DNA of 64,000 nt, taken from Bacillota bacterium (GTDB lineage Bacteria; Bacillota; Clostridia; Oscillospirales; Acutalibacteraceae). The position numbers were made by a program, and so were the translations under genes. The stretch lies in NCBI GenBank assembly GCA_022706685.1, contig JAKJCA010000002.1, forward strand, positions 4,459 through 68,458, written 5' to 3'. The stretch's first letter is position 1; the number at the start of each line of letters is the position of its first letter. This document shows, in pieces, positions 1 to 13,795 of this stretch. The notes under the pieces are model-generated. The model did not search any database, was not told the DNA's origin, and was given only the letters and a program-made list of their open reading frames with translations.

Positions 1-147
1 AGCCGCCGCAACGATGGAATCGACGCAATGTGTTTGGGCAAGTCGAAAAATCCGGGCCCACTCGACGGAATGCATGGGTGGTTCGGGCGCGGTTCCCGTT
101 GCGCCGCAATAGGTTAAATAAATTAAATAGGAAAACTCGGCGGTCAT
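1..147 (-). CDS. 5' end of a CDS that runs off the window (MTAEFSYLIYLTYCGATGTAPEPPMHSVEWARIFRLAQTHCVDSIVAAA...). Possibly the uncharacterised nucleotidyltransferase family that accompanies HprK-like kinases in RiPP clusters.
   Basis: Own translation of the minus strand from the ATG at 147-145. It is absent from the ORF track because there is no stop in the window. It is co-directional with, and 99 nt downstream of, the HprK-like gene. The family guess rests only on remembered N-terminal similarity. Confidence 0.3.
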   Translation of the reverse strand, partial: MTAEFSYLIYLTYCGATGTAPEPPMHSVEWARIFRLAQTHCVDSIVAAA

Positions 148-245
148 ATGCGTTTACCTTTGCTGCCGGATGAGGACAATGAATACATTCGCCGGTCAAT
201 GCGATACTATTGAATGCTATTATATCTTAATTCAAAGCCAAAATT

Positions 246-977
246 TTATTCTTGAAAGGCGCGGCTGCCGCCGGCCGACATAGCGGTCCAGGCCGTAATA
301 ACCGCATCCGGGCTGATGTTGCATTCAAGGACATAAGCGGGCACTTCCGCTAAAAAATCCGTCAGAATGCCGGCGCTGATAACGGGTGTTTGGCTGTCGA
401 AGCGCCGTAAAACCTGGCCCCACATTCGTTGAAAAGCCTCTTTTTGAGGAATGCGCCCGATGTGATTGACATCGGCCCTTTCCAGAAAACACAGTCCCCG
501 GACCGGGTGCCTTTCGTTGATGCTGATGTCCGCCTTGCCGCTCCACGGCGTTCCGTAGGCGTAATACCGGCCGTCTGTCTTCCGGATGACCGGTTTGTCG
601 TCGTTGAGGATAAAGCAGTTTTTACCCTGAAAATATTCCACCCAAAGAGAGGCGTGCGTTGATTTTCCCGTGCCGCAATCGGCGGAAAAAAGATAGGCGG
701 AACCGTCGAGCACGACGGCCGAAGCGTGCAAAACAATTGCGTTGCGGCGAACGACTTCAATATTAAAATCCAATCCCGAGTAGCAATATTCTATATCGTC
801 GTCGCTCCAACCGGGATGTTTGATTTTTAAACTGGCGATTCTGCCGCGGGTCACTTCAATCTTGAAATCCGGGCTGCCGTTTTGAACCGCCGTTGCAAGA
901 TAAGGCCGCGCCTGCGACAATATGCGGCCTGAACAGCGAAGGTCGACGGTAAAATCGGCGATAGAATACAGGGGCAT
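246..977 (-). CDS. HPr-kinase-related P-loop protein (ScmC / HprK-related-kinase-like), a putative peptide-tailoring kinase
   Basis: 243-aa ORF with the P-loop SADCGTGKST. Its ATG lies 1 nt after the ABC-exporter stop (TAAcATG), which suggests translational coupling. Size and layout match HprK C-terminal-domain-like proteins found in radical SAM/PqqD cassettes. Confidence 0.65.
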   Translation of the reverse strand: MPLYSIADFTVDLRCSGRILSQARPYLATAVQNGSPDFKIEVTRGRIASLKIKHPGWSDDDIEYCYSGLDFNIEVVRRNAIVLHASAVVLDGSAYLFSADCGTGKSTHASLWVEYFQGKNCFILNDDKPVIRKTDGRYYAYGTPWSGKADISINERHPVRGLCFLERADVNHIGRIPQKEAFQRMWGQVLRRFDSQTPVISAGILTDFLAEVPAYVLECNISPDAVITAWTAMSAGGSRAFQE

Positions 978-978
978 G

Positions 979-2757
979 TTAATCTTCTCCGGGCCGGTTT
1001 TGGGTTTCGGTACAGATTTTCCTTGCCTCGGCCAGGGTCAACGGCCGGATGCTGTGATCCGCAACATGGTAAACCTTGTCGCAGATTTCAAGCACGCCGA
1101 AACGATGCGTGCTGAAAATACAGATTCGGTTGCCTTTGGTATTTTTGACATTCTGCAGGATATTGCGCTCGGTTTCAATGTCGAGCGAACTGGTGGCCTC
1201 GTCGAACAGGATAATCGGCTTCCCGCAAATGATTGCGCGGGCGATTGCGATGCGCTGCGCCTGCCCTTCGGATATGCCGATACCGTTTTCGCCTACATAC
1301 GTGTTGATGCCGTTTTCCATTTCGGCGACAAAGTCGTAAGCGCAGGCTGCTTTCAACGCGTCGACAATTTCGGGGTCGCTTGCATCCGGCTTGACGGTCC
1401 TCAGATTATCGGCTATTGTGCCTGAAAAAACCGTATTGCCCTGGGGAACATAGGCAAACAAAGACCTGGTGTGTTCGCTGACCGGTATTTCCCGGGACCC
1501 GTCCGCTTTTATTCTGACGCAAATCTTTCCTCCGCTTGGCCGGATAAGCCCGAGCAGGGCGCGGAAAATGGTTGTTTTTCCGCTGCCGGAAGACCCGATC
1601 AAAGCCACGGTATCGTTGCGGTCAAAGAGCATATGGACGTTTTCGACGATCGCGTCGCTGTTTTTATACTTCACTTCGACGTTTTCGAACGCAATTTCGG
1701 CGCCGTACCGCAGGCAGTTCTCCGTCGTTTTTCTGCTGCTTTCCACGTCCGGCTGTTCGTCGCGGTTGAGCCTCATCACCTCCATAATCCGGCTCGTCGA
1801 CGTCGACGCCGAAACCAAACCGGGTACGATGCCCGTTATCGACGAAAAAGAAGACCTGAAGATGGAAGACAGCTGTAGAAAAAGCGTCATCGTCCCGAAG
1901 GTGATGCCGCCCGTCCAAAGCCTGTATATGCCCCAGGCGTAGCAAGCGTAATTCGTGAACATGCCCAGAACTCCCATAAAAGCCGAGACGATGAGCGAGA
2001 TTTTATTAAAATCCATATTCACTTTTTCGTATCTTGACTGAACGCGCCGCAGATTATAAACACGGAACGGTTCAATGGCGAACGCTTTTAATATCTGTAT
2101 GTTCTTTAACGATTCGGCATTGAAAGACATCAGTTCGCTGTCGATTTTTTTCGTTTCCATGCTGAAAGCGTGGATTCTTTTCATCATCAGTTTGTAAATG
2201 ATGCCGAGGAACGGCGCCGACAGGAGGGAAAGGAAGGCGAAAGTGGGGTCGTAATACACAATGACCGCGAAAGCGCCGAACATCATGGCCGAACTGAGTA
2301 AAACGGAGTTCAAAGTCGAAACGACAATCCCCGAAACCGTTCTGACATCCGAATGAAGCCTGTTGAGCAGGTCGCCGGTCTGATAAACGGAAATATCTTC
2401 CCAGCGCGTATTCAAAATGGCTTGAAAGGCGTCCGCGATCATGCTGTTGGTGATCCTGATATTCACTCTGAGCGATATGCGGCTTGAAAGCGAATTGATG
2501 GGGATGTTGCAAAGCGACAGCAGGATTGTTGCGGCGAACGCCGTCCGAACGCCGGAAAGATTTTTGCCGACGACCGAATCGATGACGAATTTGAACGCGA
2601 CGCTGCTGACAAGGCTCAAGCCGGTTGCGATCAGGCCGAGCAGCAGGCAGAGAACAATTCTGCCGGAATACCGTTTGGTGTATTGGTAGTTCCACTTGAA
2701 CGTCGCGATGATTTCGCGGAGTATTTGTCTGTTGATGATTTCTTTTTTGTTTTTCAT
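979..2757 (-). CDS. ABC exporter with fused 6-TM permease and ATPase (peptide-export type)
   Basis: Walker A GSSGSGKTT, signature ISEGQAQR, Walker B ILFDEATSSLD and H-loop FSTHR, with an N-terminal multi-TM domain. The ORF track starts at TTG 2823. The ATG at 2757 (MKNKKEIINRQ...) is the more plausible start. Confidence 0.9.
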   Translation of the reverse strand: MKNKKEIINRQILREIIATFKWNYQYTKRYSGRIVLCLLLGLIATGLSLVSSVAFKFVIDSVVGKNLSGVRTAFAATILLSLCNIPINSLSSRISLRVNIRITNSMIADAFQAILNTRWEDISVYQTGDLLNRLHSDVRTVSGIVVSTLNSVLLSSAMMFGAFAVIVYYDPTFAFLSLLSAPFLGIIYKLMMKRIHAFSMETKKIDSELMSFNAESLKNIQILKAFAIEPFRVYNLRRVQSRYEKVNMDFNKISLIVSAFMGVLGMFTNYACYAWGIYRLWTGGITFGTMTLFLQLSSIFRSSFSSITGIVPGLVSASTSTSRIMEVMRLNRDEQPDVESSRKTTENCLRYGAEIAFENVEVKYKNSDAIVENVHMLFDRNDTVALIGSSGSGKTTIFRALLGLIRPSGGKICVRIKADGSREIPVSEHTRSLFAYVPQGNTVFSGTIADNLRTVKPDASDPEIVDALKAACAYDFVAEMENGINTYVGENGIGISEGQAQRIAIARAIICGKPIILFDEATSSLDIETERNILQNVKNTKGNRICIFSTHRFGVLEICDKVYHVADHSIRPLTLAEARKICTETQNRPGED

Positions 2758-2911
2758 ATTCGGCAACGCGTCCTCATCGGATTCTTGCTTGACCCTTCGC
2801 GGACCAAAAACCGGGGGTATCAAAATAACCGGCGATTTTGATACCCCTTTTGGTAAGCGGCAGACAGGATTTATGCTTTTCTGATAATGAAGGAACGGTT
2901 GAAACGGTTGA

Positions 2912-3250
2912 TTACGGCCAACCCGGCGGCGGATACACCGGAGGATCCGGCGGGGTATGACGAGGATTGGAACATAACATCCACCATACGAGAGTGAAGG
3001 CGTCTTCCGGTTTGCTGGGATAAGTCGTGCAAGGGACCTCCGGGTTTGGTGAATTCGCCGGCCTGTCGTTACACCACCCTATACCATGGCAGTCATTGCA
3101 TTTTGCATCATCCAAATCACTGCCTACGCCGGAAATGAGCATCTGGTCGGTTTCATAGGAGATAATCGACGCCCTTGGGGTAACATACGTCTTTTTGATA
3201 CTTACACCTCCCTTCCAAACCATATCCTGTCTGTCAGTGATTCGTTTCAT
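2912..3250 (-). CDS. Candidate RiPP precursor peptide with a Cys/Trp/Pro-rich C-terminal region. The true start is probably ATC 3199 or ATG 3223.
   Basis: A small ORF sits between the second radical SAM gene and the exporter. GGAGG at 3211-3207 is followed by a 7-nt spacer and an in-frame ATC at 3199, giving (M/I)KKTYVTPRASIISYETDQMLISGVG... The core is ...CNDCHGIGWCNDRPANSPNPEVPCTTYPSKPEDAFTLVWWMLCSNPRHTPPDPPVYPPPGWP. No SD precedes the ATGs at 3250 or 3223. Confidence 0.55.
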   Translation of the reverse strand: MKRITDRQDMVWKGGVSIKKTYVTPRASIISYETDQMLISGVGSDLDDAKCNDCHGIGWCNDRPANSPNPEVPCTTYPSKPEDAFTLVWWMLCSNPRHTPPDPPVYPPPGWP

Positions 3251-4310
3251 GCCGGCTGGCTAATTGTCCGTTTTCAAAAGACTCGCGGCGTTCTCTGGCC
3301 TCGGCGCAAAACGACGCGGGTACTTTGCCGTAATCTTGTGTTTCCGCGTACAATTTTCCCAAACAAATGCCGCAGAAAGCTTTGTCGGCGCAGTTTTTGC
3401 ATTCGTTGGGACCTTCGATAACAGTGAGCTGATCGCAAAGGGAATGCCAGGCGTTGATAAAACCGTCCTGGAAGGGCTCGGTGTACGGGACGCTTGCCGT
3501 CGGACAAAGCTGCATGTTTCCGTTCCAGGTGATGCAGTAAGCGGCGTTGACGGAACCGCAGTTTTTGGGGAAAAGAAGAAGGGAATCATTCTTTCCCGGG
3601 GCACTCAGCAGGTTTTGGGGCAGGCTCCCGAAATCGGCGGACATCGCTTTGCCCTCGGATACCGCGCCCCTGACGGGGTTGTTGAGGTGGTACCCGTAAC
3701 GAAATTGCCAATTGTTCTCCCGCGCGATTTTTTCGACAGCGGAGAAGTCTTTCACATTTTCCTTCGTCACGGTCATCTTCAGCTCGATGGGAATGCCGTT
3801 TTCTTTCATCAGCAGTAAGTTTCTTAATACAACGTCAAAACCGTCCCGGACTCCGCAAAGCTTTTGGTACGTTGCGTTTGAAGCGCCGTAAAGCGATACC
3901 GAAACAGAATAAGGCGGATGCCCGGCAAGCCTTTTTACGGCCGCTTCGTCGATGAGATATGCGTTGGAAAGGATGATGGGCACGATGCCGAGGCTGACGG
4001 CCTTTTCATAGATTTCAAAAAAATCGGAACGTAAAAAAACCTCTCCGCCGGTCAGTTGCAGGATTAATGTGCCGGCTTGCGCGGCGCTTTTGATTAGTTC
4101 TATCCATTCGGCGGCCGTCCGTTCCCTGCCGATTTTTTTCATCTGCGCGGGTTCCAGGCGGATATAACACATTTTGCACTTGAAATTGCATCTCGGCGTC
4201 AGCTCCAGAGTGCCGCAAATCGGGATTCGTTTTTCTCTGCAGCGGCCGAACAACGTAAAGAAATATTTTTCAGAAATAGAAATGTTTGTTGGGGAGGAAG
4301 GCCTCTTCAT
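3234..4310 (-). CDS. Radical SAM / SPASM-domain peptide maturase (copy 2)
   Basis: CX3CX2C motif CNFKCKMC within GTLELTPRCNFKCKMCY. C-terminal Cys cluster CKNCADKAFCGIC...FCAEA. The start is set at ATG 4310 (AAGGTG SD, just after the PqqD stop at 4321) rather than the track start at 4400. It is a paralog of the 4648-5709 protein. Confidence 0.9.
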   Translation of the reverse strand: MKRPSSPTNISISEKYFFTLFGRCREKRIPICGTLELTPRCNFKCKMCYIRLEPAQMKKIGRERTAAEWIELIKSAAQAGTLILQLTGGEVFLRSDFFEIYEKAVSLGIVPIILSNAYLIDEAAVKRLAGHPPYSVSVSLYGASNATYQKLCGVRDGFDVVLRNLLLMKENGIPIELKMTVTKENVKDFSAVEKIARENNWQFRYGYHLNNPVRGAVSEGKAMSADFGSLPQNLLSAPGKNDSLLLFPKNCGSVNAAYCITWNGNMQLCPTASVPYTEPFQDGFINAWHSLCDQLTVIEGPNECKNCADKAFCGICLGKLYAETQDYGKVPASFCAEARERRESFENGQLASRHETNH

Positions 4311-4320
4311 GGCGTCACCT

Positions 4321-4587
4321 TTATGGCTCGATGATACCGTTTTCCTGTAAAAATGTGACAAAATCGCGGATGCCCGCCTCGGCTTCCTCTGGGCTGACAT
4401 CGTAAGCTTCCGTCATCTTTTCGACCAGCTGCGAAATTGTCGCGTCCTCCGCCAGACAATCCCAAAGGAACGCGCCGGTTTCGTTTAAATCGATGAGCGC
4501 GTCGAAACTGCTGAGGTTTGCGCCGGTTGGGATGACGACGTAAGTCTCGTCTATTTCCCTTTTAACAAAACCAGGTTTGATTTTCAT
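4321..4587 (-). CDS. PqqD-family peptide chaperone (RiPP recognition element)
   Basis: 88 aa, acidic. The pattern ...VVIPTGANLSSFDALIDLNETGAFLWDCL...ISQLVEKMTEAYDVSPEEAEAGIRDFVTFLQENGII is typical of stand-alone PqqD proteins. A GGAGGGA SD precedes it, and it lies between two radical SAM genes. Confidence 0.8.
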   Translation of the reverse strand: MKIKPGFVKREIDETYVVIPTGANLSSFDALIDLNETGAFLWDCLAEDATISQLVEKMTEAYDVSPEEAEAGIRDFVTFLQENGIIEP

Positions 4588-4647
4588 AAGGCCGTCCCTC
4601 CGGTTGCAATTATTTAATTGATCTGTGTTTATTTTTATTTATTGAAG

Positions 4648-5709
4648 TTAAGAGACATTGCCGGTGGTTTCCAGGGCTTTTTTGCACAGCCTTGCCCGTT
4701 CGCAAAATGCGGGCGAACAAACGCTGCTGCTTCCGGTTTCCGCCATCAGTCTGCCGATGCATACGTTGCAGTACGGCTTCATATCGCAATTCTCGTATTC
4801 GGGCGGGCCTGTGACAGCGTCTAATTTTCGGCACAGTTCTTTCCACGCCGCGTGGAAACCGTCCCGCCAAGGCAAGGTAAAGGGCTCGAACGCCGTTGCG
4901 CAAAGGCTCATTTTCCCATCCCACGTGATAAAGAACGAGGCGTGATAGGCGCCGCAGCGCCGGATGAACGGGCCGGTCGAATAGCGGGCGTGATAATTTT
5001 TATCTAAAAAAACGGGCAGATTGCCCAAGCCGATACCGAGTTCCTTGCCCTCGGAATGCGCGCCCCGGATAGGATTCCTGACGTTATAGTCATAATGGAG
5101 CGTATATCCGTTCCGGTTGGCGATTTCCCGTACGGCGCCGTAATCGGCGATATTCTCCTTTGTCAGCGTCATCTTAAATTCAAGTTTGATTTTTGCTTCT
5201 TTCAGCATGTGGAAATTGCGGATCACGGTGTCAAACCCGTTTTCAATACCGCAAAGCTTCTTATAGGTTTCGTTGGAGGCACCGTACATCGTAAAAGAAA
5301 AAAGATAGGGGGGATATTCGGCAAGGAACCGGATTTTTTCCTCATCCAGCAGGGACGCATTAGAAAGGATGATGGGCAAGCCGCCGTTTTGAACGATAAA
5401 GCGGTAAATATCAAAAAAATCCTGTCTTAAAAGCACCTCTCCGCCAGTCAGTTCAAACAGCAGCGTGCCCTCTTTGACGGCCTGTCCGATGAGGTCCGTC
5501 CATTCCCGCGCGGTTCTCTCGGCGCCGATCGTTTTCATTTGCCTGGGCTGAAGCCGGACATAGCACATTTTGCACCGGAAATTGCATCGCGGCGTCAATT
5601 CCAGCGTGCCGCACAACGGAAGTTGTTTTGCGCGGTATTTGTTGGACAGAAAAAGCAGATATTCTTCCGAAAACAAATCGCCTTTTGAACAAATACCCAT
5701 CATATCCAC
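4648..5709 (-). CDS. Radical SAM / SPASM-domain peptide maturase (copy 1)
   Basis: CNFRCKMC (CX3CX2C) in GTLELTPRCNFRCKMCY. C-terminal Cys cluster ENCDMKPYCNVCIGR...FCERA. The start is ambiguous among GTG 5709, ATG 5703 and ATG 5700. Confidence 0.9.
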   Translation of the reverse strand: MDMMGICSKGDLFSEEYLLFLSNKYRAKQLPLCGTLELTPRCNFRCKMCYVRLQPRQMKTIGAERTAREWTDLIGQAVKEGTLLFELTGGEVLLRQDFFDIYRFIVQNGGLPIILSNASLLDEEKIRFLAEYPPYLFSFTMYGASNETYKKLCGIENGFDTVIRNFHMLKEAKIKLEFKMTLTKENIADYGAVREIANRNGYTLHYDYNVRNPIRGAHSEGKELGIGLGNLPVFLDKNYHARYSTGPFIRRCGAYHASFFITWDGKMSLCATAFEPFTLPWRDGFHAAWKELCRKLDAVTGPPEYENCDMKPYCNVCIGRLMAETGSSSVCSPAFCERARLCKKALETTGNVS

Positions 5710-5736
5710 CCACAGTACTCAGCCGCGGGGCGATGC

Positions 5737-6222
5737 CTATTCGACGGAAAGACCGAACATTTTGACGGCGGCGCTGATGATGAATCTCCGGACCGGAACA
5801 AGGGCCAGCCAAATATGTTCGTAAAATTCCCAGACGATGTTGCCGGGTTGAATGAGTTTTTCGTTTCGTTTGGCCGAAACGACGATTCCTTTGATTTGCT
5901 CCGCTTCAACCGGCCCCTCTTTCACGCTTTGGAAATCGCCGATTAGATAAAATTGGTTCTCTTTTTTATCTTTGCTGTAAATCCTGTGAATCACATACTG
6001 GCCGTTTTTTCGCCGGAAAAGGACGATATCCCCTCTTTTCAGCTTGGATAGATCCGCTTTCCCGATATGGATGGTGTCCCTGCGGTTTCGAAGGAAGGGG
6101 TACATGCTCACCCCGCATGCAAGGACCGAAACGGCGTTGCCGCAGGCGATAATATCCGTTAAAACGCCGATATACTCTTGCGTGTTGCTGATTTTCACAA
6201 GAGGTGTATCCATATTCATCAC
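5737..6222 (-). CDS. S26-family (SipW/ER-type) signal-peptidase-I-like protein, a putative leader peptidase
   Basis: Ser box GVSMYPF, a His box ...YVIHRIY (Ser-His type, as in SipW-like enzymes) and a GDIVLF block, with a hydrophobic C-terminal segment. It is the first gene of the operon. Confidence 0.65.
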   Translation of the reverse strand: MMNMDTPLVKISNTQEYIGVLTDIIACGNAVSVLACGVSMYPFLRNRRDTIHIGKADLSKLKRGDIVLFRRKNGQYVIHRIYSKDKKENQFYLIGDFQSVKEGPVEAEQIKGIVVSAKRNEKLIQPGNIVWEFYEHIWLALVPVRRFIISAAVKMFGLSVE

Positions 6223-6258
6223 CGTCGGCTGAACAAAACAAAAGAAATATTGTGGCTT

Positions 6259-6287
6259 ATATTATCATTTTATTTTAGTATTGTCAA
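6259..6287 (-). promoter_or_regulatory. Sigma-A-type promoter for the RiPP operon
   Basis: On the minus strand: TTGACA (6287-6282), a 17-nt spacer, then TAATAT (6264-6259). It lies in an AT-rich gap about 35 nt upstream of the peptidase start. Confidence 0.5.
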
Positions 6288-6380
6288 TAATAGTTAGTAG
6301 TTATGCTGATTTTTGAAAACAGAACCCCGATAAAATGAATAAATATGCAATCAATTAAACCGATGATCAAATCGAACGGC

Positions 6381-6428
6381 AAAAAACAGCCGTGCAGTCC
6401 GCGGGCGGAAATGCGGATTGCACGGTTG
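6381..6428 (-). terminator. Intrinsic terminator after the URO-D-like gene. A-run/T-run on both sides makes it possibly bidirectional.
   Basis: The 10-bp stem CAGCCGTGCA (6387-6396) / TGCACGGTTG (6419-6428) has one G-U pair. It is followed on the minus strand by TTTTTT (6386-6381). Confidence 0.55.
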
Positions 6429-6444
6429 CGGGCTTTTTTCTCTT

Positions 6445-7548
6445 TCAGCGATGCGCGTACCGCGCCGAATAGTCCAAATACATCTTGATGCCTTCGCCAG
6501 GCACGTTCCAGGGGATATGGTTGCCGATGCACATCATATAGCCGCCGGTCATTTGAGCCGTTTCGACCATGCTCAGCACCATCTTTTTAATGGCCGCGCC
6601 GTCGCAGGAACTCAGGATGCGGTTGTCGCCCTCGCCGGCGAGGAAGCAGTCCTTGTGCTTCGCGGCGATGGCTTTGTAGTCGGTGTAAGGCTCCGAGATG
6701 ATGCCCCTCGCCCCGCAGGCGAAGACGTCGTCGGCGTAAGCGTCCATGCAGCCGTCCGCCATGAAGATGACCTCTTTGCCCGCGCTTTTGACGATGGACC
6801 AGAACTCCTCGTACCGCGGGAAGATATAGCGGTTCATCCATTTCGGCGAACATACGGGCCCGCGCGTGGTGACGATGTCGTCGTGGCAGATGACAAAATT
6901 GACCGGCAGCCGGGCGAACGCGCGGAACACCCGCCGGTTGAGCTCGGCGAACTCGTCCATCACGCGCTGAAAACGCTCGTCGAGGCAGCAGCGCAGGAAC
7001 ATCTCCCAGCCGAAGGTCAGCAGCGGCCACATGAACATGGTGTTGTAAAAACACACGGAAGCGTCGGAACCCTCCGGCGCTTTGTCGGGTGCGCCGGGCG
7101 AGTCGTCGCCGCCGAAAAATTCAAACAGTTTTTCCTCGCTGCTGTAGTCCCAATCGACGACCACGTGCGGCCACTTGACAAAATCGGCGGCGTGCTCGAG
7201 CGGGCTGAAGGCGAACACGTCCTCCTCGGTTTTGAAAAACGCCTCGCCGTGCTCCCAGGTGGCCGTTTCACCGTCTCCCCAGCGGACGGTGTGCTTCGCG
7301 CTGTCCGAACTGTCGCCCCCGGCGCCCAGGCGCGGCCGCGGCCTCGGCTTGTCGGAGTCGGGCACGCCGAGCCCCAGCTGCGGGTAGAGTTCGCGCAGTT
7401 TCAGCCGGCAAAGCCGCGGGTGCTCATAGTAGTCGATGCCGGTCAGCCAGGTTTCGGCGTCCGGGTTCGACCAGTGCTCCCAGTGGGGGATGCGTTTCGG
7501 CCCCAGCCCCATATAGGCCATGTACCTGTCGCTGTACGGCATGGGCAA
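6445..7548 (-). CDS. Uroporphyrinogen-decarboxylase (URO-D)-family protein, function unknown
   Basis: 367-aa ORF with a GGAGGG SD. Overall similarity from memory to URO-D/MtaA-like TIM-barrel proteins. It resembles the second copy at 47501-48550 in its C-terminal half. Confidence 0.55.
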   Translation of the reverse strand: MPMPYSDRYMAYMGLGPKRIPHWEHWSNPDAETWLTGIDYYEHPRLCRLKLRELYPQLGLGVPDSDKPRPRPRLGAGGDSSDSAKHTVRWGDGETATWEHGEAFFKTEEDVFAFSPLEHAADFVKWPHVVVDWDYSSEEKLFEFFGGDDSPGAPDKAPEGSDASVCFYNTMFMWPLLTFGWEMFLRCCLDERFQRVMDEFAELNRRVFRAFARLPVNFVICHDDIVTTRGPVCSPKWMNRYIFPRYEEFWSIVKSAGKEVIFMADGCMDAYADDVFACGARGIISEPYTDYKAIAAKHKDCFLAGEGDNRILSSCDGAAIKKMVLSMVETAQMTGGYMMCIGNHIPWNVPGEGIKMYLDYSARYAHR

Positions 7549-7563
7549 CCCTCCGCCACCGTG

Positions 7564-8091
7564 TCAAAACTTCATATACCAGTAGACCGCTTTTTCTTCC
7601 GCGGCGAGCGGCAGTTTGTCATAATCGATGACGTCCACCGAACCGATGGCCATGCCCTGTTTGGCGTAGAAGCGGCAGGCGGCCAGGTTGTTGTCCTGCG
7701 TTTCGGCCGCCAGCCCGGGGAAACCGGCGCTTTTGGCCCACGCGACGGCCGCTTCGAACAGCGCGCTGCCGACGCCCGAACGCCTCGCCGCTTTCCTGAC
7801 GCAAAAGTCCTCGATGAGGGCATAGCCGTTCCAGTTTTTCGCCAGCACGATCTGCCCTTCGCAACCGTCGCCGCCGATAGAAAAGAATACGGCTTTGTCC
7901 TGCCGGCCGACGTAATCCCCGGCACGGGCAGCGTTGGGCTCGTACGGCTTTTCGCTCGAAAAAGCGAAAAGTTCCTCGGCGCAGGACCAGCAGCCGTTCT
8001 CGTATTTCGGGAGCAGGCGGCCGATGATGTCAATCGGCTCGTTGGCCGTATTGAAATCGGCCATGTTTGATTGTGTCATGCGGACAATCAA
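7564..8091 (-). CDS. GNAT-family N-acetyltransferase
   Basis: Acetyl-CoA motif RKAARRSGVGSALFEAAVAWAK and ...NNLAACRFYAKQGM. The start is uncertain, with alternative Met codons at aa 5 and 10. Confidence 0.8.
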   Translation of the reverse strand: MIVRMTQSNMADFNTANEPIDIIGRLLPKYENGCWSCAEELFAFSSEKPYEPNAARAGDYVGRQDKAVFFSIGGDGCEGQIVLAKNWNGYALIEDFCVRKAARRSGVGSALFEAAVAWAKSAGFPGLAAETQDNNLAACRFYAKQGMAIGSVDVIDYDKLPLAAEEKAVYWYMKF

Positions 8092-8118
8092 TGGATTTCA
8101 CCGCCGGTTCCGCGCCGG

Positions 8119-10284
8119 TCACGCCTGGTCGAGCACACGGAACAATTCCTCGAACGGGATGCCGCTGTCTTTTCCTTTTTCGACGAGGAGTTTGTTGTAA
8201 CGCGCAATCCAGTAGGGCATGATGATGTTGTACGACTCGTGCAGATGACGGCCCATGTGCCCCTGTCTGGCCTGGAAAAAGTTCGCGCCCGTGCTGCCGC
8301 GCTCGTCCATCGCCACGGCGTAGGGTTTTCCGCTGTCCGGATAGAACAGGAACCCCTCGTCCTCAACCGCATCCGGGCGTGTGGCGTTGTCGATAAGGAA
8401 CTCGCGCGAGTTGACGGGGTAGCGGCTGATCTGCCACCGGAGCATATCGAGGCAGGAGCGGCCGAATCCGTCGAACTGCTCCGCTTCGTTATGGATGACC
8501 TGGTAAATCAGCGACCATTCGATATCCCGCGCGTATTTTTCAAGTTCCCACCAGGAATCCGCGCCCTGCCGGTATTTCTCCAGCAGCACCGGGTCGGTTT
8601 CCAACTGCGAGAGGGTGTAGTACGAAACGGCGGCCATGCGCACGTCGGAGTAGTTCATGATCTTGACCACGCGGTTGAAAATTTCTTCCTCGTCGTTCTC
8701 GTCCTCGACGAGGTCCTTCGCGATGATACGGTAGCGTTCGAAATGCTCGCGCAGCAGGTCCGCGTAGCGGTACGGCTCTTCGAGCGCGAGTTTGCGGTAC
8801 TCGCGGTCCCATTCCTCGTCGCCGGTGATGTGGTGGGCGACCTTGTACAGCTGCAGCAGGATGGAAAGGCCCAGCGGCGCGTCCGGGAAGCCGTCGGAGT
8901 ACTCGTTCATGTAGTATTCGCGGTTCATCCTCGCCCAGGAGGTCGGCTGGCCGCCGGCGTCGGTGTGGCAGTAGTTGTTGTCGGTGAAATGCCTCGCGTG
9001 CCGCCGCACGACGGTCTTGATGATGTCCGCCAGTTCGGGGTCTTCCGGCCCGAGGATATCGTAGGCCAGGTGCCAGACCGCGTAATGGCCGACCAGTTCG
9101 TCATTGGAAGTGTCGCATTTATAGATGATGTCGTCGTCGCCCCAGGGTTTGCCGGTTTTTGGGTTCACTTCATCGGTGTACAGTTTTTTCAGCCGCGCGG
9201 GGATTTCCATGGAGCTGTCCACCGTCAGAAGGGGCGGGATGTCGTCCCCCTTGTCGGAGGTGGAAGGGATGCGCACGGACACCAGCTTGCCGTCGGGCGT
9301 GAACTTTTTGCGGAAAAACACGCCGTCGCCGAAGGGGACGGGGTCGTTCTCCGGGTCGTTGACATGGTAGGAGCGGGCGATGTAGCCCTCCACATTGCGG
9401 AAGACGATTTCCGGCATCCCCTGCGTTGCCCAGTCCTCCGGCCGGGCGGGGCCCACCTTGCTGACCACGCAGCCGACCGGTCCGTGGTCGGGCAGGTTGA
9501 TTTTATACTCCCTGCCTTCCAGCAGGAACTCGTCGCTCGCGCGGTTGGTGCCGGGCTTGTTGTAGCGGACGAAAGAAGCCACTTTCCCCTTCCAGCTTGG
9601 GATGCAGGCCAGCAGCAGGACAGCCTCCGTCCAGCGCGTCGCCGTTTCTTTCGCGCGCGCGATTTCTTCTTTCGTCGCCGAGGGGTCGTCCCTGAGCACC
9701 GCGTAGCGGCAGATGTCGCCCATGGCGACCAGCGAGGTCCATAGGCCGTCGTTGTCGGATTCACGGCCGACCCAGCGGCCGTTCTTCTGGTCCCAGCGCG
9801 CGCCGCTGAGCATGCCGCGGCGCTGCACATAGCGCATATCGACTTCCGAAAGGAAAACGGCCTTTTCCTTGGCGGACATCGCTTTCATCGCGATATGCGC
9901 CACGCTCGTCGCGGTCAGCACATACACGCCGCTGCCGCCGTCGCCGTACACCGCGAGCACCTCGTTGTCGAGCATATAGGCCGCCGCCCGGAAACACTGG
10001 ACGCGGTCGAGCGGCTCGGGTTCCTTTTCATTCACGCGCCAAAGCCCCTCGCGGGTGCCCAGCCAAAGGACGCCTTGCCCGTCCTCATACGCGCAGGTAA
10101 TCGTTTCCGGCGCCAGAAAATCCGGCAGGCGCGCGGCCTGGGCGGCGCTGAGCGGTGTTTTGGGCAGATTTTCCAGCCGCCGGACCAAATCCGGGTTGTC
10201 CCCGCGCGGCTGCCGGATGGCCAGGCGCTGCAGCGTCTCCCTGATTTCAAGCGGTTTGCCCTGATAATCCCTTTTCTGAGCCAT
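8119..10284 (-). CDS. Large cytoplasmic protein of unknown function (721 aa)
   Basis: Long ORF with an AAGGAGA SD and protein-like composition. I can assign no motif with confidence. The N-terminal GVLWLGTREGLWRV resembles a beta-propeller repeat. Confidence 0.6.
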   Translation of the reverse strand: MAQKRDYQGKPLEIRETLQRLAIRQPRGDNPDLVRRLENLPKTPLSAAQAARLPDFLAPETITCAYEDGQGVLWLGTREGLWRVNEKEPEPLDRVQCFRAAAYMLDNEVLAVYGDGGSGVYVLTATSVAHIAMKAMSAKEKAVFLSEVDMRYVQRRGMLSGARWDQKNGRWVGRESDNDGLWTSLVAMGDICRYAVLRDDPSATKEEIARAKETATRWTEAVLLLACIPSWKGKVASFVRYNKPGTNRASDEFLLEGREYKINLPDHGPVGCVVSKVGPARPEDWATQGMPEIVFRNVEGYIARSYHVNDPENDPVPFGDGVFFRKKFTPDGKLVSVRIPSTSDKGDDIPPLLTVDSSMEIPARLKKLYTDEVNPKTGKPWGDDDIIYKCDTSNDELVGHYAVWHLAYDILGPEDPELADIIKTVVRRHARHFTDNNYCHTDAGGQPTSWARMNREYYMNEYSDGFPDAPLGLSILLQLYKVAHHITGDEEWDREYRKLALEEPYRYADLLREHFERYRIIAKDLVEDENDEEEIFNRVVKIMNYSDVRMAAVSYYTLSQLETDPVLLEKYRQGADSWWELEKYARDIEWSLIYQVIHNEAEQFDGFGRSCLDMLRWQISRYPVNSREFLIDNATRPDAVEDEGFLFYPDSGKPYAVAMDERGSTGANFFQARQGHMGRHLHESYNIIMPYWIARYNKLLVEKGKDSGIPFEELFRVLDQA

Positions 10285-10376
10285 GGCGGTCTCCTTTTCT
10301 ATTCAGCGTGATTTTTGATTGGCGCGTCGTGTGCCCTCGCCGGGAGCGCGTTTTGCGCGGCCTTAATACGGCGTAT

Positions 10377-11684
10377 TCAGCCGTTGAAATCAAAGGCTCC
10401 CGGCTTATCGAAGGTCAGCGGATAATAAGCGATCACGGTCAAATCCGGCCGGTACAGCGCCGCGTATTCCGCGGCGGAACCCTCGTAATGCCTAAGGTCC
10501 AGAAGGCGGATTTCCGCGTTTGCGGCGAGGGCAAGAAATGGCAGGAACGCCGCGCAATAGGAATCCCCGATGATCAGCAGTTTTTTGTCCTGGGGCGCGT
10601 TCATGTTTTTGATGACCTTCAAACCGTGGTCCTCGCCGAGATAGTACATATAGCAGTTCTTGACGAACAGGTTGCCGTCTTGCAGATATTTCTGGTTGAC
10701 GAGGGTATCCTCAAAGCGGCCCCGTTTCTGGAAACTCGTGCTGCCCGACGTGTAGTAATAATAAAAATCGGTGTTTTCTTTCGGCAGCAGAACTTCGAAA
10801 TCGTCGAGCCCCGCGTAATGTTTGCCGACCCGCTTGCCCTGGCTGCCCAGCCAGGATTTTTGATAGACCGTGCGGGTAAAATTCGCCGGGTCGATGAGCC
10901 CCGCGTCGGCGGAAAACCCGAAATTTTTGTTGAGTTCGCCGCACATCTCCCCGGCGGCCCACAGACCGGTCGAGGGCAGCCAGTGGTGGTCCGTCCGGAA
11001 GAACAGCGCGTGGTAGTCAAGCCGCTGCTCCAGAATACGCTGGCGCAGATCGAAGGTCGCGACGCCCCTGGCCTCCAGCGCGCCGAGCAGGCCGCTGGCT
11101 TTTGCATTGGTATAATCTGCTACGCCCCGGGGCAGCTGCGGATCGAGGCTATTGATTTTAAAAGGCATCTGCACATAAAGCAGCCGCGAGCCCGAAGCGG
11201 CCAGCTGCGAGCCGAACGAGGCGATGGCCGCCGCGCTTGTCTGCGCGAAACCGCCGTCGGGCCGGGGGTCGATGAAGGTCAGGTAACCGTCGTCGAGCTT
11301 GATGACGCTTCTTTCGCCGCTGTTTTTTTCCTCCATAATGCGGTTGCCCATCGCGCGGTTGACCAGCCCGTGCAGGCTGATGAAATCCGTCCGGCGGAAA
11401 AGGTTCTCGTCCAGGCCGTTGAGTTTCTTACAAATGGCAAACGCCGCGGCTTTTGCCTTGGCCGCCGCGCCCGCGTTTGCGCCGGCGGTTTCGGCGTACA
11501 AAGTCAAAGTTTCCTGCCGGTTTACGTACAAACGCGCGCCGGTACCCGCGAGCACGACGAAAAGGAACGCGATGAAAACGACGGAAATGACGGCGTCCCT
11601 GTCGAACTTCAACTTCAAACGAGCACCTCCCGCGGTCGATGGGCCGGCCGGCGGCGCCGGCGCGAAACACCAAAGATTATACAT
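10377..11684 (-). CDS. DHHW-motif protein (AlgX/AlgJ-like SGNH fold, membrane-anchored)
   Basis: FFRTDHHW motif and an N-terminal TM segment (AVISVVFIAFLFVVLAG). The start is set at ATG 11684 (GGGGAGAGG SD) rather than the track start at 11834, which would overlap the divergent GH36 gene. Confidence 0.7.
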   Translation of the reverse strand: MYNLWCFAPAPPAGPSTAGGARLKLKFDRDAVISVVFIAFLFVVLAGTGARLYVNRQETLTLYAETAGANAGAAAKAKAAAFAICKKLNGLDENLFRRTDFISLHGLVNRAMGNRIMEEKNSGERSVIKLDDGYLTFIDPRPDGGFAQTSAAAIASFGSQLAASGSRLLYVQMPFKINSLDPQLPRGVADYTNAKASGLLGALEARGVATFDLRQRILEQRLDYHALFFRTDHHWLPSTGLWAAGEMCGELNKNFGFSADAGLIDPANFTRTVYQKSWLGSQGKRVGKHYAGLDDFEVLLPKENTDFYYYYTSGSTSFQKRGRFEDTLVNQKYLQDGNLFVKNCYMYYLGEDHGLKVIKNMNAPQDKKLLIIGDSYCAAFLPFLALAANAEIRLLDLRHYEGSAAEYAALYRPDLTVIAYYPLTFDKPGAFDFNG

Positions 11685-11818
11685 CAACGCCTCTCCCCAT
11701 TTCAATCGGAAGAAAACACGGGTTTTTCTCCGGAGACCCTTGCATTTTCGCCCCGCCGTATTTATTGTTAATGGAAGGCAAAACACCCGGGCGGCGTTGA
11801 CTGCGGCAAAGAACAACC

Positions 11819-13795
11819 ATGAAAGAAGGCGCATCCATGGAATGGGACGAAAACAGCCTGGCGTTCGGGCTGAGCTTCGATTACGGCGGCGAAAGTTTTC
11901 AAAGCCTGCTGCCCGGCGCGCAAACCGCGCGCGGGGGAACCGGCGGCGAAACGACGGTGGAAATCCGTCTGGGCAACCTGAAATTGACGCGTGTCATCAA
12001 GCGGTACCCCGCCTTCGACGCCGTCGAATGGGTGCACTGGTTTGAAAACACGGGCGAGGAACCGACCGGCGTCATCTCCGCGCTGTTTGACTGCGACGTG
12101 CGCGTCCCGTTTGAAAACGACGAACCGCGCGTGCCCGGTTACCGCGTCAAAGAGACCTCGAGCCGTGTTTACAGCGCCAAAGGATCCGTGCTGGCGCGCG
12201 ACGAGTTTTGCCCGAAAGCCGCTTATCTTGCGCCGGGGCAAACGCTCCGCTATGCCTGCGAGGGCGGCCGTTCCTCCAACGGCACCGCGCCGTTTTTCAA
12301 TGTCTGCCGCGAAAGGAAGGGCATTTATGTTGCTGTCGGCTGGTCGGGCCAGTGGCAGGCGTATTTCACGCGCGGGGACGGCTTCATCGGCATCCGGACG
12401 GGCATCGAAAACACCGGTTTCCGGCTCCTGCCCGGGGAAAAAATCAGGACATCGTCCGTGCTGCTGATGGGGTACGAAGGGGATCAGCCGCAGGGCCGCA
12501 ACCGGTTCCGGCGGCTGGTCAGGGAGCACTTTTCCCTTATCGGCAAACCCGGCAAGCCGGAAAACGGGCCGTTTTGCACGATGGTGTGGGGCGCTTTGCC
12601 CACCGCCGGGGTGATCGAAAGGCTTGAAAAATACAAACAGGAACGTTTCGGTTTCGAATATCTCTGGATGGACGCCGCCTGGTACGGCTCCCCTTCGGGT
12701 TACTGCCCCAGCGAGCACGTCGGCGACTGGGGAACCCAGACGGGCAACTGGGCCGTCAACACCAAAACACATCCCGACGGCTTGCTCGACGTCGCCGCCA
12801 AGGTCAAAGAGAACGGCATGAAGTTCCTGCTGTGGATTGAACCCGAGCGCGTCATCGCGTCCAACCCGACGCCGAGGGAGCACCCCGGCTGGTATTTCAA
12901 ACGCCGCGGCGACGACCGGGAAAACGCCACCTGGCTGCTCAACCTCGGCGACGAGGGGGCGTTCGAGGGGACGGCGGCGATGGTCGAACACTATATCGAA
13001 ACCCTCTCGCTGGGCTGTTACCGGCAGGATTTCAACACCGATCCGCTGCCCTATTGGCTTGACAACGACGAGCCGGAGCGCGCCGGCATCTGTGAGATCA
13101 AACACATCATGGGGCTGTACCGGCTTTGGGACCGTCTGCTTGAAAAATATCCGTCCCTCATCATCGACAACTGCGCCAGCGGCGGCAGACGCATCGACAT
13201 CGAAACGCTGCGCCGCTCGATACCCCTGTGGCGCAGCGACTACCAGTGCACCTGGGATTTCGACCCCGAAACATCCCAGACGCACAACATGGGCTTTTCC
13301 TCCTGGCTGCCGTTTACCGGTACGGGCACGGGCAAACTGTTCGGGGACGACTACCGTTTCCGCAGCAGTTACGCCGCGGCGCTGACGACCTCCTACTGGG
13401 GTTACGAGGGCTGGGAAATCAGCGACGGCCAGCCGCTGGAATGGGTGCGCCGCTCCAACGCGGAATACCTGCGCGCGAGGCCGTATTTTTCACGCGATTT
13501 CTATGCGCTGACCCCTCCGCCGATGGACGACTGTTCCTGGGCCGCCAGCCAGTATCACGACCCGGATAAAAACGCCGGGATCGTGCTGGCGTTCCGCAGG
13601 CCGCTGTGCCCGTGCGATTCGGCGGTTTTACGCCTCGAAGGGCTCGACGGCGCCGCCGCCTACCGTGTCGAAGACGCCGGCAGCGGCGAGGCGTTTGAAA
13701 CGGACGGGGCTTCCCTCGCCGCGGGCCTGCGCGTTTGCCTGCCCTGCCCGCGGTCGTCGAAACTGTATTTCTACTCGAAAATAACGGCGGAATAA
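11819..13795 (+). CDS. GH36-like alpha-galactosidase
   Basis: Blocks YLWMDAAWY and IDNCASGGRRID are typical of GH36. The alternative start ATG 11837 has the better SD (GAAAGAAGG). Confidence 0.75.
   Translation: MKEGASMEWDENSLAFGLSFDYGGESFQSLLPGAQTARGGTGGETTVEIRLGNLKLTRVIKRYPAFDAVEWVHWFENTGEEPTGVISALFDCDVRVPFENDEPRVPGYRVKETSSRVYSAKGSVLARDEFCPKAAYLAPGQTLRYACEGGRSSNGTAPFFNVCRERKGIYVAVGWSGQWQAYFTRGDGFIGIRTGIENTGFRLLPGEKIRTSSVLLMGYEGDQPQGRNRFRRLVREHFSLIGKPGKPENGPFCTMVWGALPTAGVIERLEKYKQERFGFEYLWMDAAWYGSPSGYCPSEHVGDWGTQTGNWAVNTKTHPDGLLDVAAKVKENGMKFLLWIEPERVIASNPTPREHPGWYFKRRGDDRENATWLLNLGDEGAFEGTAAMVEHYIETLSLGCYRQDFNTDPLPYWLDNDEPERAGICEIKHIMGLYRLWDRLLEKYPSLIIDNCASGGRRIDIETLRRSIPLWRSDYQCTWDFDPETSQTHNMGFSSWLPFTGTGTGKLFGDDYRFRSSYAAALTTSYWGYEGWEISDGQPLEWVRRSNAEYLRARPYFSRDFYALTPPPMDDCSWAASQYHDPDKNAGIVLAFRRPLCPCDSAVLRLEGLDGAAAYRVEDAGSGEAFETDGASLAAGLRVCLPCPRSSKLYFYSKITAE

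Follow-up and report, generated by a model that had tools for sequence, protein, structure and literature searches.

What does a run of eight co-directional genes at one end of an Acutalibacteraceae contig make, and is the copy found there still able to make it? The DNA considered here (hereafter 'the window') is the whole 64,000-nucleotide (nt) stretch at positions 4,459 to 68,458 of contig JAKJCA010000002.1, from the Bacillota assembly GCA_022706685.1, and the genes at its left end encode an S26-type peptidase, two radical S-adenosylmethionine (rSAM) enzymes, a PqqD protein, a small open reading frame (ORF), an ATP-binding cassette (ABC) exporter, an HprK-like kinase and a nucleotidyltransferase (NTase). 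We think it probable that they form an intact, independently transcribed operon for a ribosomally synthesised and post-translationally modified peptide (RiPP), in which a tailoring set of the lasso-peptide type has been combined with rSAM cross-linking enzymes. A first-pass annotation of the same DNA had already proposed a RiPP-type operon, and that proposal is upheld by the precursor-like small ORF, the PqqD protein, the rSAM enzymes and their synteny; what it had overlooked is the lasso-type set of leader, PqqD, kinase, NTase and ABC exporter.

Conservation of the cassette

At least 556 loci of this kind were found in a scan of one genome per species, and relatives of the second rSAM enzyme (rSAM-2) number more than 1,300, nearly all of them unnamed; no curated NCBIfam model covers the rSAM, PqqD or precursor of the family. 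The loci lie mainly in Oscillospiraceae, Lachnospiraceae, Acutalibacteraceae, Peptococcaceae and relatives, Atopobiaceae and Coriobacteriaceae (Collinsella), with a few in metagenome-assembled genomes (MAGs) of Verrucomicrobiota. Searching 84 loci with hidden Markov models (HMMs) built from the cassette proteins gave the following counts:

rSAM enzyme, 84/84 loci
ScmC-type kinase, 76/84 loci
PqqD, 72/84 loci
ABC exporter, 58/84 loci
S26 peptidase, 42/84 loci
PF14907 NTase, 34/84 loci

Conservation of the gene set as a unit had been named as a check on the RiPP reading, and the set does travel together across these 84 loci. The peptidase and exporter, which had been taken for additions peculiar to this version, turn out to be ordinary for the family, since they are present in 42 and 58 loci, respectively. 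A leader-bearing small ORF lies near the cassette in 63 of the 84; the peptides share the leader MKKxYxxPxhxhhxhxxxExhA(S/G/C), which is followed by very diverse cores. Ser is the C-terminal residue in 45 of 78 family peptides (58%), as against 8% of residues overall, and 70 of the 78 have at least one Cys past position 25. Set against this background, the window locus stands out for its two in-paralogous rSAM enzymes, an orphan Pro/Trp/Cys-rich core of ~70 amino acids (aa), a peptide that ends in Pro, and an ATC codon in place of ATG.

Versions of the cassette that lack an rSAM enzyme were also seen (L092 7342-9705; L093 7794-13424, from Pelotomaculum schinkii; L094 6379-9316). These combine PqqD and ScmC, with or without S26, ABC and NTase genes, carry short acidic peptides with a KKxYxxPE leader, and adjoin S-layer homology (SLH) and other large surface proteins; it is to their short (~235 aa) ScmC subgroup that the window kinase is closest. 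In P. schinkii, the SLH protein just upstream of ScmC (L093 7995-9065) ends ...NLDGGEIIDY, and the adjacent 31-aa leader peptide (7794-7889) ends ...SGGEIIDG, such that the C-termini of both look related.

Architecture and transcription of the operon

All eight genes originally described as co-directional are present on the minus strand, with the identities and in the order assigned to them. Together with their signals, they are:

6387-6428, both strands: terminator hairpin with T-runs (17-bp stem, 10 GC pairs; TTTTTT next on the minus strand)
6287-6259, minus strand: sigma-70-type promoter, TTGACA-17-TAATAT plus TG extension (10/12 matches)
5737-6222, minus strand: S26/SipW-like peptidase
4648-5709, minus strand: rSAM-1 (gene callers start at 5700)
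4321-4587, minus strand: PqqD
3234-4310, minus strand: rSAM-2
2912-3223, minus strand: small ORF, putative precursor (open frame from 3250)
2847-2805, minus strand: perfect 13-bp hairpin, then CGGTTTTTGG, between precursor and exporter
979-2757/2766, minus strand: ABC exporter
246-977, minus strand: HprK-like kinase
1-147, minus strand: NTase N-terminus (start ATG at 147; 49 codons, running off the left edge)

The near-consensus promoter reported previously is indeed there, is the top scorer among 10 promoter-like sites in 1-7000, and lies in a stretch (6223-6330) of which 104/108 nt are kept in a divergent strain. The hairpin at 6387-6428, upstream of the operon, closes the preceding URO-D gene; with this hairpin followed by a promoter, the operon is therefore an independent transcription unit, insulated by the upstream hairpin. 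Gaps between genes had been given as 0-88 nt, which needs correcting: ~145-154 nt separate the precursor stop from the true ABC start (2823 being merely the start of the open frame), and 98 nt separate the ScmC-type kinase from the NTase. The 121-nt region around the hairpin at 2847-2805 folds with -30.8 kcal/mol (z = -2.98), and 155/157 nt are kept in the divergent strain; the hairpin is probably an attenuator, acting on precursor versus exporter. An Rfam scan of 1-7000 returned no regulatory RNA.

None of the eight enzyme frames is interrupted, and identical or nearly identical copies recur in many independent metagenomes; the kinase coding sequence is matched exactly on 23 contigs, and a 100% match to window 1-6400 is given by MWBU01000020.1, a contig of the 'Firmicutes bacterium ADurb...' MAG GCA_002069695.1. 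On identical contigs, the operon runs on past the window edge, where the NTase is completed to 422 aa and a membrane protein of 195 aa follows.

The putative precursor peptide

The small ORF sits directly after rSAM-2, as in related loci. Aligned with its relatives, the peptide reads (MVWKGGVS)IKKTYVTPRASIISYETDQMLISG, and the nearest leader, from a Papillibacter MAG, is MKKYSAPRAEFIEMSSMELIASG, followed by C; the core of ~70 aa contains 15 Pro, along with 5 Cys and 5 Trp, and its last residues are PPPGWP. Comparison with a second strain (L097 and L099; 195 differences in 6700 nt, or 97.0% identity across the operon) is informative here. Over its 309 nt (103 codons) the small ORF differs by two synonymous and no nonsynonymous changes, where ~3 nonsynonymous would be expected, and its divergence of 0.65% is the lowest in the operon (1.4-4.9% in the enzymes); because the enzymes have each accumulated 2-16 nonsynonymous changes, whereas both changes in the ORF are synonymous, the peptide is under tighter constraint than any other element of the operon. 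Judged from this pattern of substitution, the small ORF is under purifying selection, and its assignment as the putative precursor (2912-3223) is supported by position, leader motif and selection alike.

Where translation starts is a more delicate matter. The start region has GGGAGG-7 nt-ATC (3196-3194), compared to GGAGG-8 nt-ATG in the Papillibacter MAG, and the strain at 97% identity keeps the ATC. There is an ATG in the same frame 27 nt upstream of it, 10 nt past the rSAM-2 stop; this placement would allow translational coupling. The ATG at 3250 was also considered as a start and judged unlikely, as it overlaps rSAM-2 and has no Shine-Dalgarno sequence; the one strain difference there is synonymous for rSAM-2 and nonsynonymous in the 3250 frame. 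The sole match to the peptide among 1.84 billion representative proteins, P0241 (a 3471-aa repeat protein), was likewise dismissed as chance, its score being the sum of eleven weak matches at 24.6 bits each.

The radical SAM enzymes

Both enzymes are matched by Pfam Radical_SAM (67 bits for rSAM-1; 67 and 78 bits for the pair). In an alignment of 22 family rSAMs (A1), the cysteines of the CX3CX2C motif (C41, C45, C48) are invariant, and a seven-Cys C-terminal motif is seen; in rSAM-2 this motif reads C251-x12-G-x4-C269; C304x2C307x5C313x2C316; C335. The two enzymes had been called paralogous, which they are: each is the other's best match at 50.8% identity, and since neither exceeds 44% to any other locus the duplication is lineage-specific, leaving two rSAM enzymes for just one precursor at the window locus.

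A profile search of the PDB places SkfB first (3.6e-30), ahead of PqqE (7.6e-16), SuiB (6.9e-10) and the anaerobic sulfatase-maturating enzyme (anSME, 3.7e-8). Foldseek, run on an AlphaFold2 (AF2) model of rSAM-2 (predicted local distance difference test score, pLDDT, 87.2), returns SkfB (5.9e-14), SuiB (~1e-13) and PqqE (3e-12), then BlsE, MoaA and anSME, and the predicted fold aligns over its full length with SuiB and anSME. A best match to non-RiPP maturases had been named as the outcome that would count against a RiPP role, and by both routes it is the RiPP enzymes that come out above anSME. Scores against individual sactipeptide and ranthipeptide models fall below their cut-offs (SkfB 36-69 vs 300; StsB 49-74 vs 625; and, listed for rSAM-1 only, AlbA 44 vs 850 and PapB 31.5 vs 340).

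Within rSAM-2, window 4029-4128 (codons 61-94) holds 16 of the 18-19 differences that set the window apart from L001, L003 and L005; a more distant allele, not one resembling rSAM-1, seems to have contributed this patch by recombination.

Kinase, nucleotidyltransferase, PqqD, peptidase and exporter

The kinase belongs to Pfam PF27840 (ScmC), in the short subgroup of ~235 aa. Its AF2 model (pLDDT 90.4) retrieves the HprK/P structures 1KKL and 1JB1 with Foldseek (7.6e-6 to 1.4e-5), followed by PEPCK; single-sequence and profile searches of the PDB found nothing meaningful, so that HprK/P is reached by the predicted fold only. On that modelled fold, the protein is a P-loop kinase of HprK/P type, and a block LHASAV...CGTGKSTH...NDDKP...GTPWSGK is invariant in 22 relatives. 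The NTase, read as a full protein from the identical contig L001, matches Pfam PF14907 NTP_transf_5 at 122.5 bits (cut-off 31.2), and within the window its frame reads MTAEFSYLIYLTYCGATGTAPEPPMHSVEWARIFRLAQTHCVDSIVAAA; D120-x-D122, E..H, two His and one Asp are invariant in 34/34 sequences. A sequence search of the PDB found no relative of the NTase.

PqqD scores 60.9 bits with Pfam (cut-off 23.4), as a stand-alone RiPP recognition element (RRE), and its best NCBIfam match is the lasso PqqD chaperone, at 39.4 bits and under the cut-off of 80. The peptidase has no Pfam match and reaches 44.1 bits with NCBIfam sigpep_I_arch (cut-off 51.85); its motifs recur in 45 family members (GxSMxP with S38 in 44/45, H78-R79 in 45/45, G94-D95 in 45/45), from which we infer an S26/SipW-type Ser-His leader peptidase. 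The exporter is a permease fused to its ATPase and is matched in Pfam by ABC_membrane and ABC_tran only; no C39 peptidase domain was found with Pfam, and the NCBIfam alignments start past the peptidase region of the bacteriocin exporters.

Relation to known peptide systems

The first-pass annotation had suggested kinship with the SynChlorMet (SCM), HPr-rel-A and GeoRSP cassettes, and that kinship proves to be remote only. The SCM parts list is certainly similar, with a pair of rSAM/SPASM paralogs plus one PqqD-like and one HprK-like protein, and the window kinase falls in the Pfam family named 'ScmC'. Every equivalog score, however, is far under its cut-off (ScmC 27.7 vs 125; ScmD 28 vs 100; ScmE 51-70 vs 400; ScmF 45-54 vs 400; HprK_rel_A 19.9 vs 200; PqqD_rel_X 18.1 vs 35; GeoRSP_rSAM 31-51 vs 400), for which reason we do not regard the operon as a member of any of the three; a typical family member is also far under these cut-offs. 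The window family differs further in being mostly from Clostridia and Coriobacteriia, and in having a defined family of precursors along with peptidase, exporter and NTase. This precursor type, the S26 peptidase, the ABC exporter and the PF14907 NTase are not known to be part of the SCM definition.

The paeninodin and pseudomycoidin lasso clusters (PadeA-K-C-B1-B2-D; psmCAKB1B2ND) offer a closer parallel, being alike in leader, PqqD/B1-type RRE, kinase, NTase and exporter. Family leaders weakly match the NCBIfam models for paeninodin-family (PadeA) and cyanobacterial lasso precursors, at positions 1-15 only. The kinase is 40% identical over 53 aa to an Hpr_kinase_C protein in a lasso cluster of Phosphitispora fastidiosa, the block common to cassette and lasso-cluster kinases being LHxSAV...GxGKST...DD, and the cassette NTase is homologous to that of a lasso cluster. 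The two system types part company in the kinase family (Hpr_kinase_C in the lasso clusters, Pfam ScmC in the window) and in the missing Ser end of the window peptide, and neither a lasso cyclase (Asn-synthase-like) nor a B2 transglutaminase-like protease is found in the operon or on L001; at L011, the neighbouring true lasso cluster contains both. In lasso systems, the precursor's C-terminal Ser is phosphorylated by a homologue of HPr kinase that is otherwise little selective, and the phosphate then receives one or two hexoses from the PF14907-type PsmN (PMC8498205, PMC6993621); the Ser itself is required by lasso-type kinases (PMC8498205). Judged by what PadeK/PsmK-type kinases accept, 45 of the 78 family peptides would pass as substrates, and the window peptide, with its Pro end, would not.

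L011 (3709-15546, P. fastidiosa) houses three peptide systems side by side: a true lasso cluster that includes an HprK kinase and a PF14907 NTase, a cassette of the rSAM/PqqD/ScmC/S26/ABC kind, and another PqqD/ScmC/S26 module that has small peptides of its own. The same side-by-side arrangement of peptide systems is seen at L032 and L030.

A third group of relatives comprises the sactipeptide and ranthipeptide systems (SkfB/SKF, AlbA/subtilosin, StsB, PapB, RumMc/ruminococcin C), with which the operon shares an rSAM enzyme bearing C-terminal auxiliary-cluster Cys and a Cys-containing leader peptide; among solved structures, SkfB comes nearest to the window rSAM in both sequence and fold. Sactipeptide clusters that combine an ABC transporter with a leader peptidase of signal-peptidase type have been described (PMC6760926). 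Here, by contrast, the RRE is not an N-terminal domain but stands as its own protein, kinase and NTase are added, and the leader is another one. SuiB and PqqE (streptide, PQQ) are the second and third structural neighbours, PqqE also working with a stand-alone PqqD; identity in the structural alignments is, however, 16-18%, and no KxxxW-type or PqqA-type precursor is present here. By analogy with these systems, the Trp-rich core would allow C-C cross-links.

Base composition, acquisition and flanking genes

The operon had been described as less GC-rich than the DNA to its right, and this is borne out by computation: GC is 0.47-0.54 in 1-6500 and 0.58-0.64 to the right, the lower-GC block stopping near 6400. 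On L001 the complete block spans 4550-12750 (~8.2 kb), with sharp edges and ~50% GC inside ~61% DNA, and the remainder of the NTase and the gene for the 195-aa protein fall within it. The block is thus compositionally foreign, and on this evidence its horizontal acquisition is plausible. No tRNA, flanking direct repeats or integrase lie within ±10 kb of the operon, and a search of plasmids brought up just three kinase matches, all of them distant (28-30% identity).

The last gene of the block (L001 12122-12709) encodes the 195-aa protein, which has an N-terminal zinc ribbon and one transmembrane segment and no counterpart in the other 83 loci; a role in immunity or regulation is possible. To the left of the window there is a second anomaly at L001 17800-19600, ~5 kb past the low-GC block, where GC drops to 0.34-0.36 and two minus-strand genes (481 and 115 aa) have no Pfam match. 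Upstream of the operon and on the same strand (6445-10284), the DNA is high-GC host sequence outside the cassette, coding for a URO-D-like protein, for a GNAT acetyltransferase and for a protein of 721 aa that has no Pfam match; an ALGX-domain protein is encoded farther on.

Discussion

Gene content and synteny, folds and catalytic motifs, the leader family, selection on the peptide and the transcription signals are all shown by the data above; on them we base a proposed pathway, the chemistry of which is inferred. The small ORF after rSAM-2 would supply the precursor, probably in excess at the level of the transcript as a result of the hairpin that precedes the exporter gene, and the stand-alone PqqD would bind its KKxYxxP leader in the way that RRE proteins do. 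The two rSAM/SPASM paralogs may then cross-link the Cys/Trp/Pro-rich core; a Cys-derived thioether is the most likely product, because SkfB is the nearest solved relative and the core has the Cys content for it, and C-C links to Trp are possible because SuiB and PqqE come next. By analogy with PadeK/PsmK and PsmN, the HprK-fold kinase would phosphorylate a hydroxyl, to which the PF14907 NTase would then add a sugar or nucleotide. This phosphate/sugar step fits the family, 58% of whose peptides end in Ser; at the window locus the kinase step is the weakest of all, because the peptide ends in Pro. Finally, the S26/SipW-type peptidase may cut the leader near a small-residue junction (between ...LISG and V), with the ABC exporter, which lacks a C39 domain, secreting the product. 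As to how such a pathway arose, the cassette looks like a paeninodin-type module of leader, RRE, kinase, NTase and exporter in which rSAM and S26 have replaced the cyclase and the B2 protease.

Several observations weigh against an intact RiPP operon of this kind. For the precursor, an ATC stands at 3196-3194 where relatives carry ATG; the codon-usage score is 0.02 per codon, as opposed to 0.37-0.59 in the enzymes (the other two frames of the stretch give -0.28 and -0.25); gene callers omitted the small ORF on all nine operon contigs examined; and the core found no relative among 1.84 billion representative proteins. The family leader HMM matches the window peptide over KKTYVTP only, the rest of its leader being revealed by direct comparison with the L016 peptide, and the peptide ends in Pro, without the C-terminal Ser that lasso kinases require (the L016 peptide likewise has none). 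On the enzyme side, the kinase has 16 nonsynonymous and 14 synonymous changes relative to L097 10001-10732, the highest ratio in the operon (rough dN/dS ~0.36, vs 0.12-0.23 for the ABC and rSAM genes), and ~40% of the family peptides lack a terminal Ser although the kinase is kept, so that something other than the C-terminus may be its target. For the rSAM/SPASM label given to both enzymes, the seven-Cys motif and the fold speak in favour, whereas the Pfam SPASM model matches neither protein, the spacing in rSAM-2 is CX2C rather than CX3C, and rSAM-1 is one Cys short, with Tyr (~4770-4790) at the C304 position, the first Cys of CX2CX5CX2C, which is at least 90% conserved in the family. Two extra Cys lie near the C-terminus of rSAM-1, and its auxiliary cluster may be altered or have open coordination. 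Nor did a literature search turn up a publication on the cassette family or a characterised member, the term ScmC being swamped by unrelated acronyms, and no product of the family has been observed in the literature searched.

How far do other explanations account for the same data? That the rSAM enzymes are maturases of cofactors or proteins (AhbC/AhbD/NirJ heme, or anaerobic sulfatase), and the operon not a RiPP system at all, seems to us barely credible. AhbC, AhbD and NirJ are nominally the top NCBIfam matches, at 63-79 bits, but against cut-offs of 500-650 and over the N-terminal rSAM core only; StsB, PqqE, ScmE and SkfB score nearly as well, SkfB aligns over near full length and outranks anSME in the PDB profile search (3.6e-30 vs 3.7e-8), the enzymes keep tight synteny with PqqD, leader peptide, peptidase and exporter over 84 loci, and no heme or sulfatase substrate genes lie nearby. 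It would be very surprising, too, if this were one of the TIGRFAM-defined cassettes (SynChlorMet with ScmC/D/E/F, HPr-rel-A or GeoRSP): the matching parts list, the cover of the kinase by PF27840 and the presence of ScmC/D/E/F among the weak NCBIfam matches all point that way, and are outweighed by equivalog scores 4- to 10-fold under cut-off, for the typical family member likewise, and by the extra precursor type, S26, ABC and PF14907 NTase, none of which is known to belong to the SCM definition. There is a slim chance that the window copy is partly disabled or silent, having lost the precursor ATG and C-terminal Ser, such that kinase and NTase lack a substrate and little or no product is made. 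The ATC at the same Shine-Dalgarno spacing, the Pro end where 58% of relatives have Ser, the relaxed substitution pattern of the kinase and the low coding score of the small ORF are all as this would predict; yet the peptide is the most conserved part of the operon, the in-frame ATG upstream lies just after the rSAM-2 stop, the L016 peptide lacks the terminal Ser as well, strain changes leave every invariant motif position of the kinase untouched, and open enzyme frames are found in near-identical copies from many independent metagenomes.

A different kind of alternative concerns what the product does. In place of a bacteriocin, the family could make a phospho-glycosylated peptide for the cell-envelope polysaccharide machinery, as a signal, primer or anchor, a proposal that we regard as improbable though it has something to recommend it. 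One or two Wzz/BY-kinase-like genes abut the cassette co-directionally in 30 of the 84 loci, with a median gap of 8.5 nt, and capsule or exopolysaccharide (EPS) genes lie within 10 kb in 48 of the 84, a raw count given without a background rate. These neighbours encode proteins of ~500 aa; they stand upstream of the cassette at L026 (4850-7926), L028, L034, L039, L058, L069, L055, L017, L023, L045, L048 and L066, and inside it at L009 10449-11944 and L040 11133-14081. PsmN, the NTase homologue, adds hexoses to phosphate (PMC6993621), and the rSAM-less versions adjoin SLH and other large surface proteins. The window copy, on the other hand, has no Wzz/BY-kinase or capsule neighbours within 64 kb, and such an exporter, leader peptidase and leader design are no less usual for antimicrobial peptides that are secreted (PMC6760926). 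The most far-reaching version of our own reading would have the cassettes define a new RiPP class, a lasso-type module (YxxP leader, PqqD, HprK-fold kinase, PF14907 transferase) recombined with rSAM enzymes. Its product would be a cross-linked peptide bearing a phosphodiester-linked sugar or nucleotide, and might act with the Wzz/BY-kinase capsule machinery instead of as a conventional bacteriocin; the window copy, with two rSAMs and a 70-aa Pro/Trp/Cys-rich core, would be an extreme case in which the kinase acts elsewhere than at the C-terminus. Taken as a whole, this is unlikely.

We return, then, to the reading that we favour, an intact operon joining lasso-type tailoring to rSAM cross-linking. 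The window block is a compact, apparently complete unit of 8.2 kb, fit for heterologous expression, and the ~80 precursor sequences, most of them Ser-ended, offer substrates for testing two enzyme types of barely known biochemistry, HprK-fold kinases and PF14907 transferases. The capsule linkage poses a question of its own, namely why the cassettes so often share an operon with genes for capsule chain length and tyrosine kinases. If our reading is correct, the pathway would join rSAM macrocyclisation with a phosphorylation/glycosylation known only from a few lasso peptides, two chemistries hitherto treated separately, and several hundred species, mostly Clostridia and Coriobacteriia of gut, rumen and digester, would share an unstudied peptide pathway.

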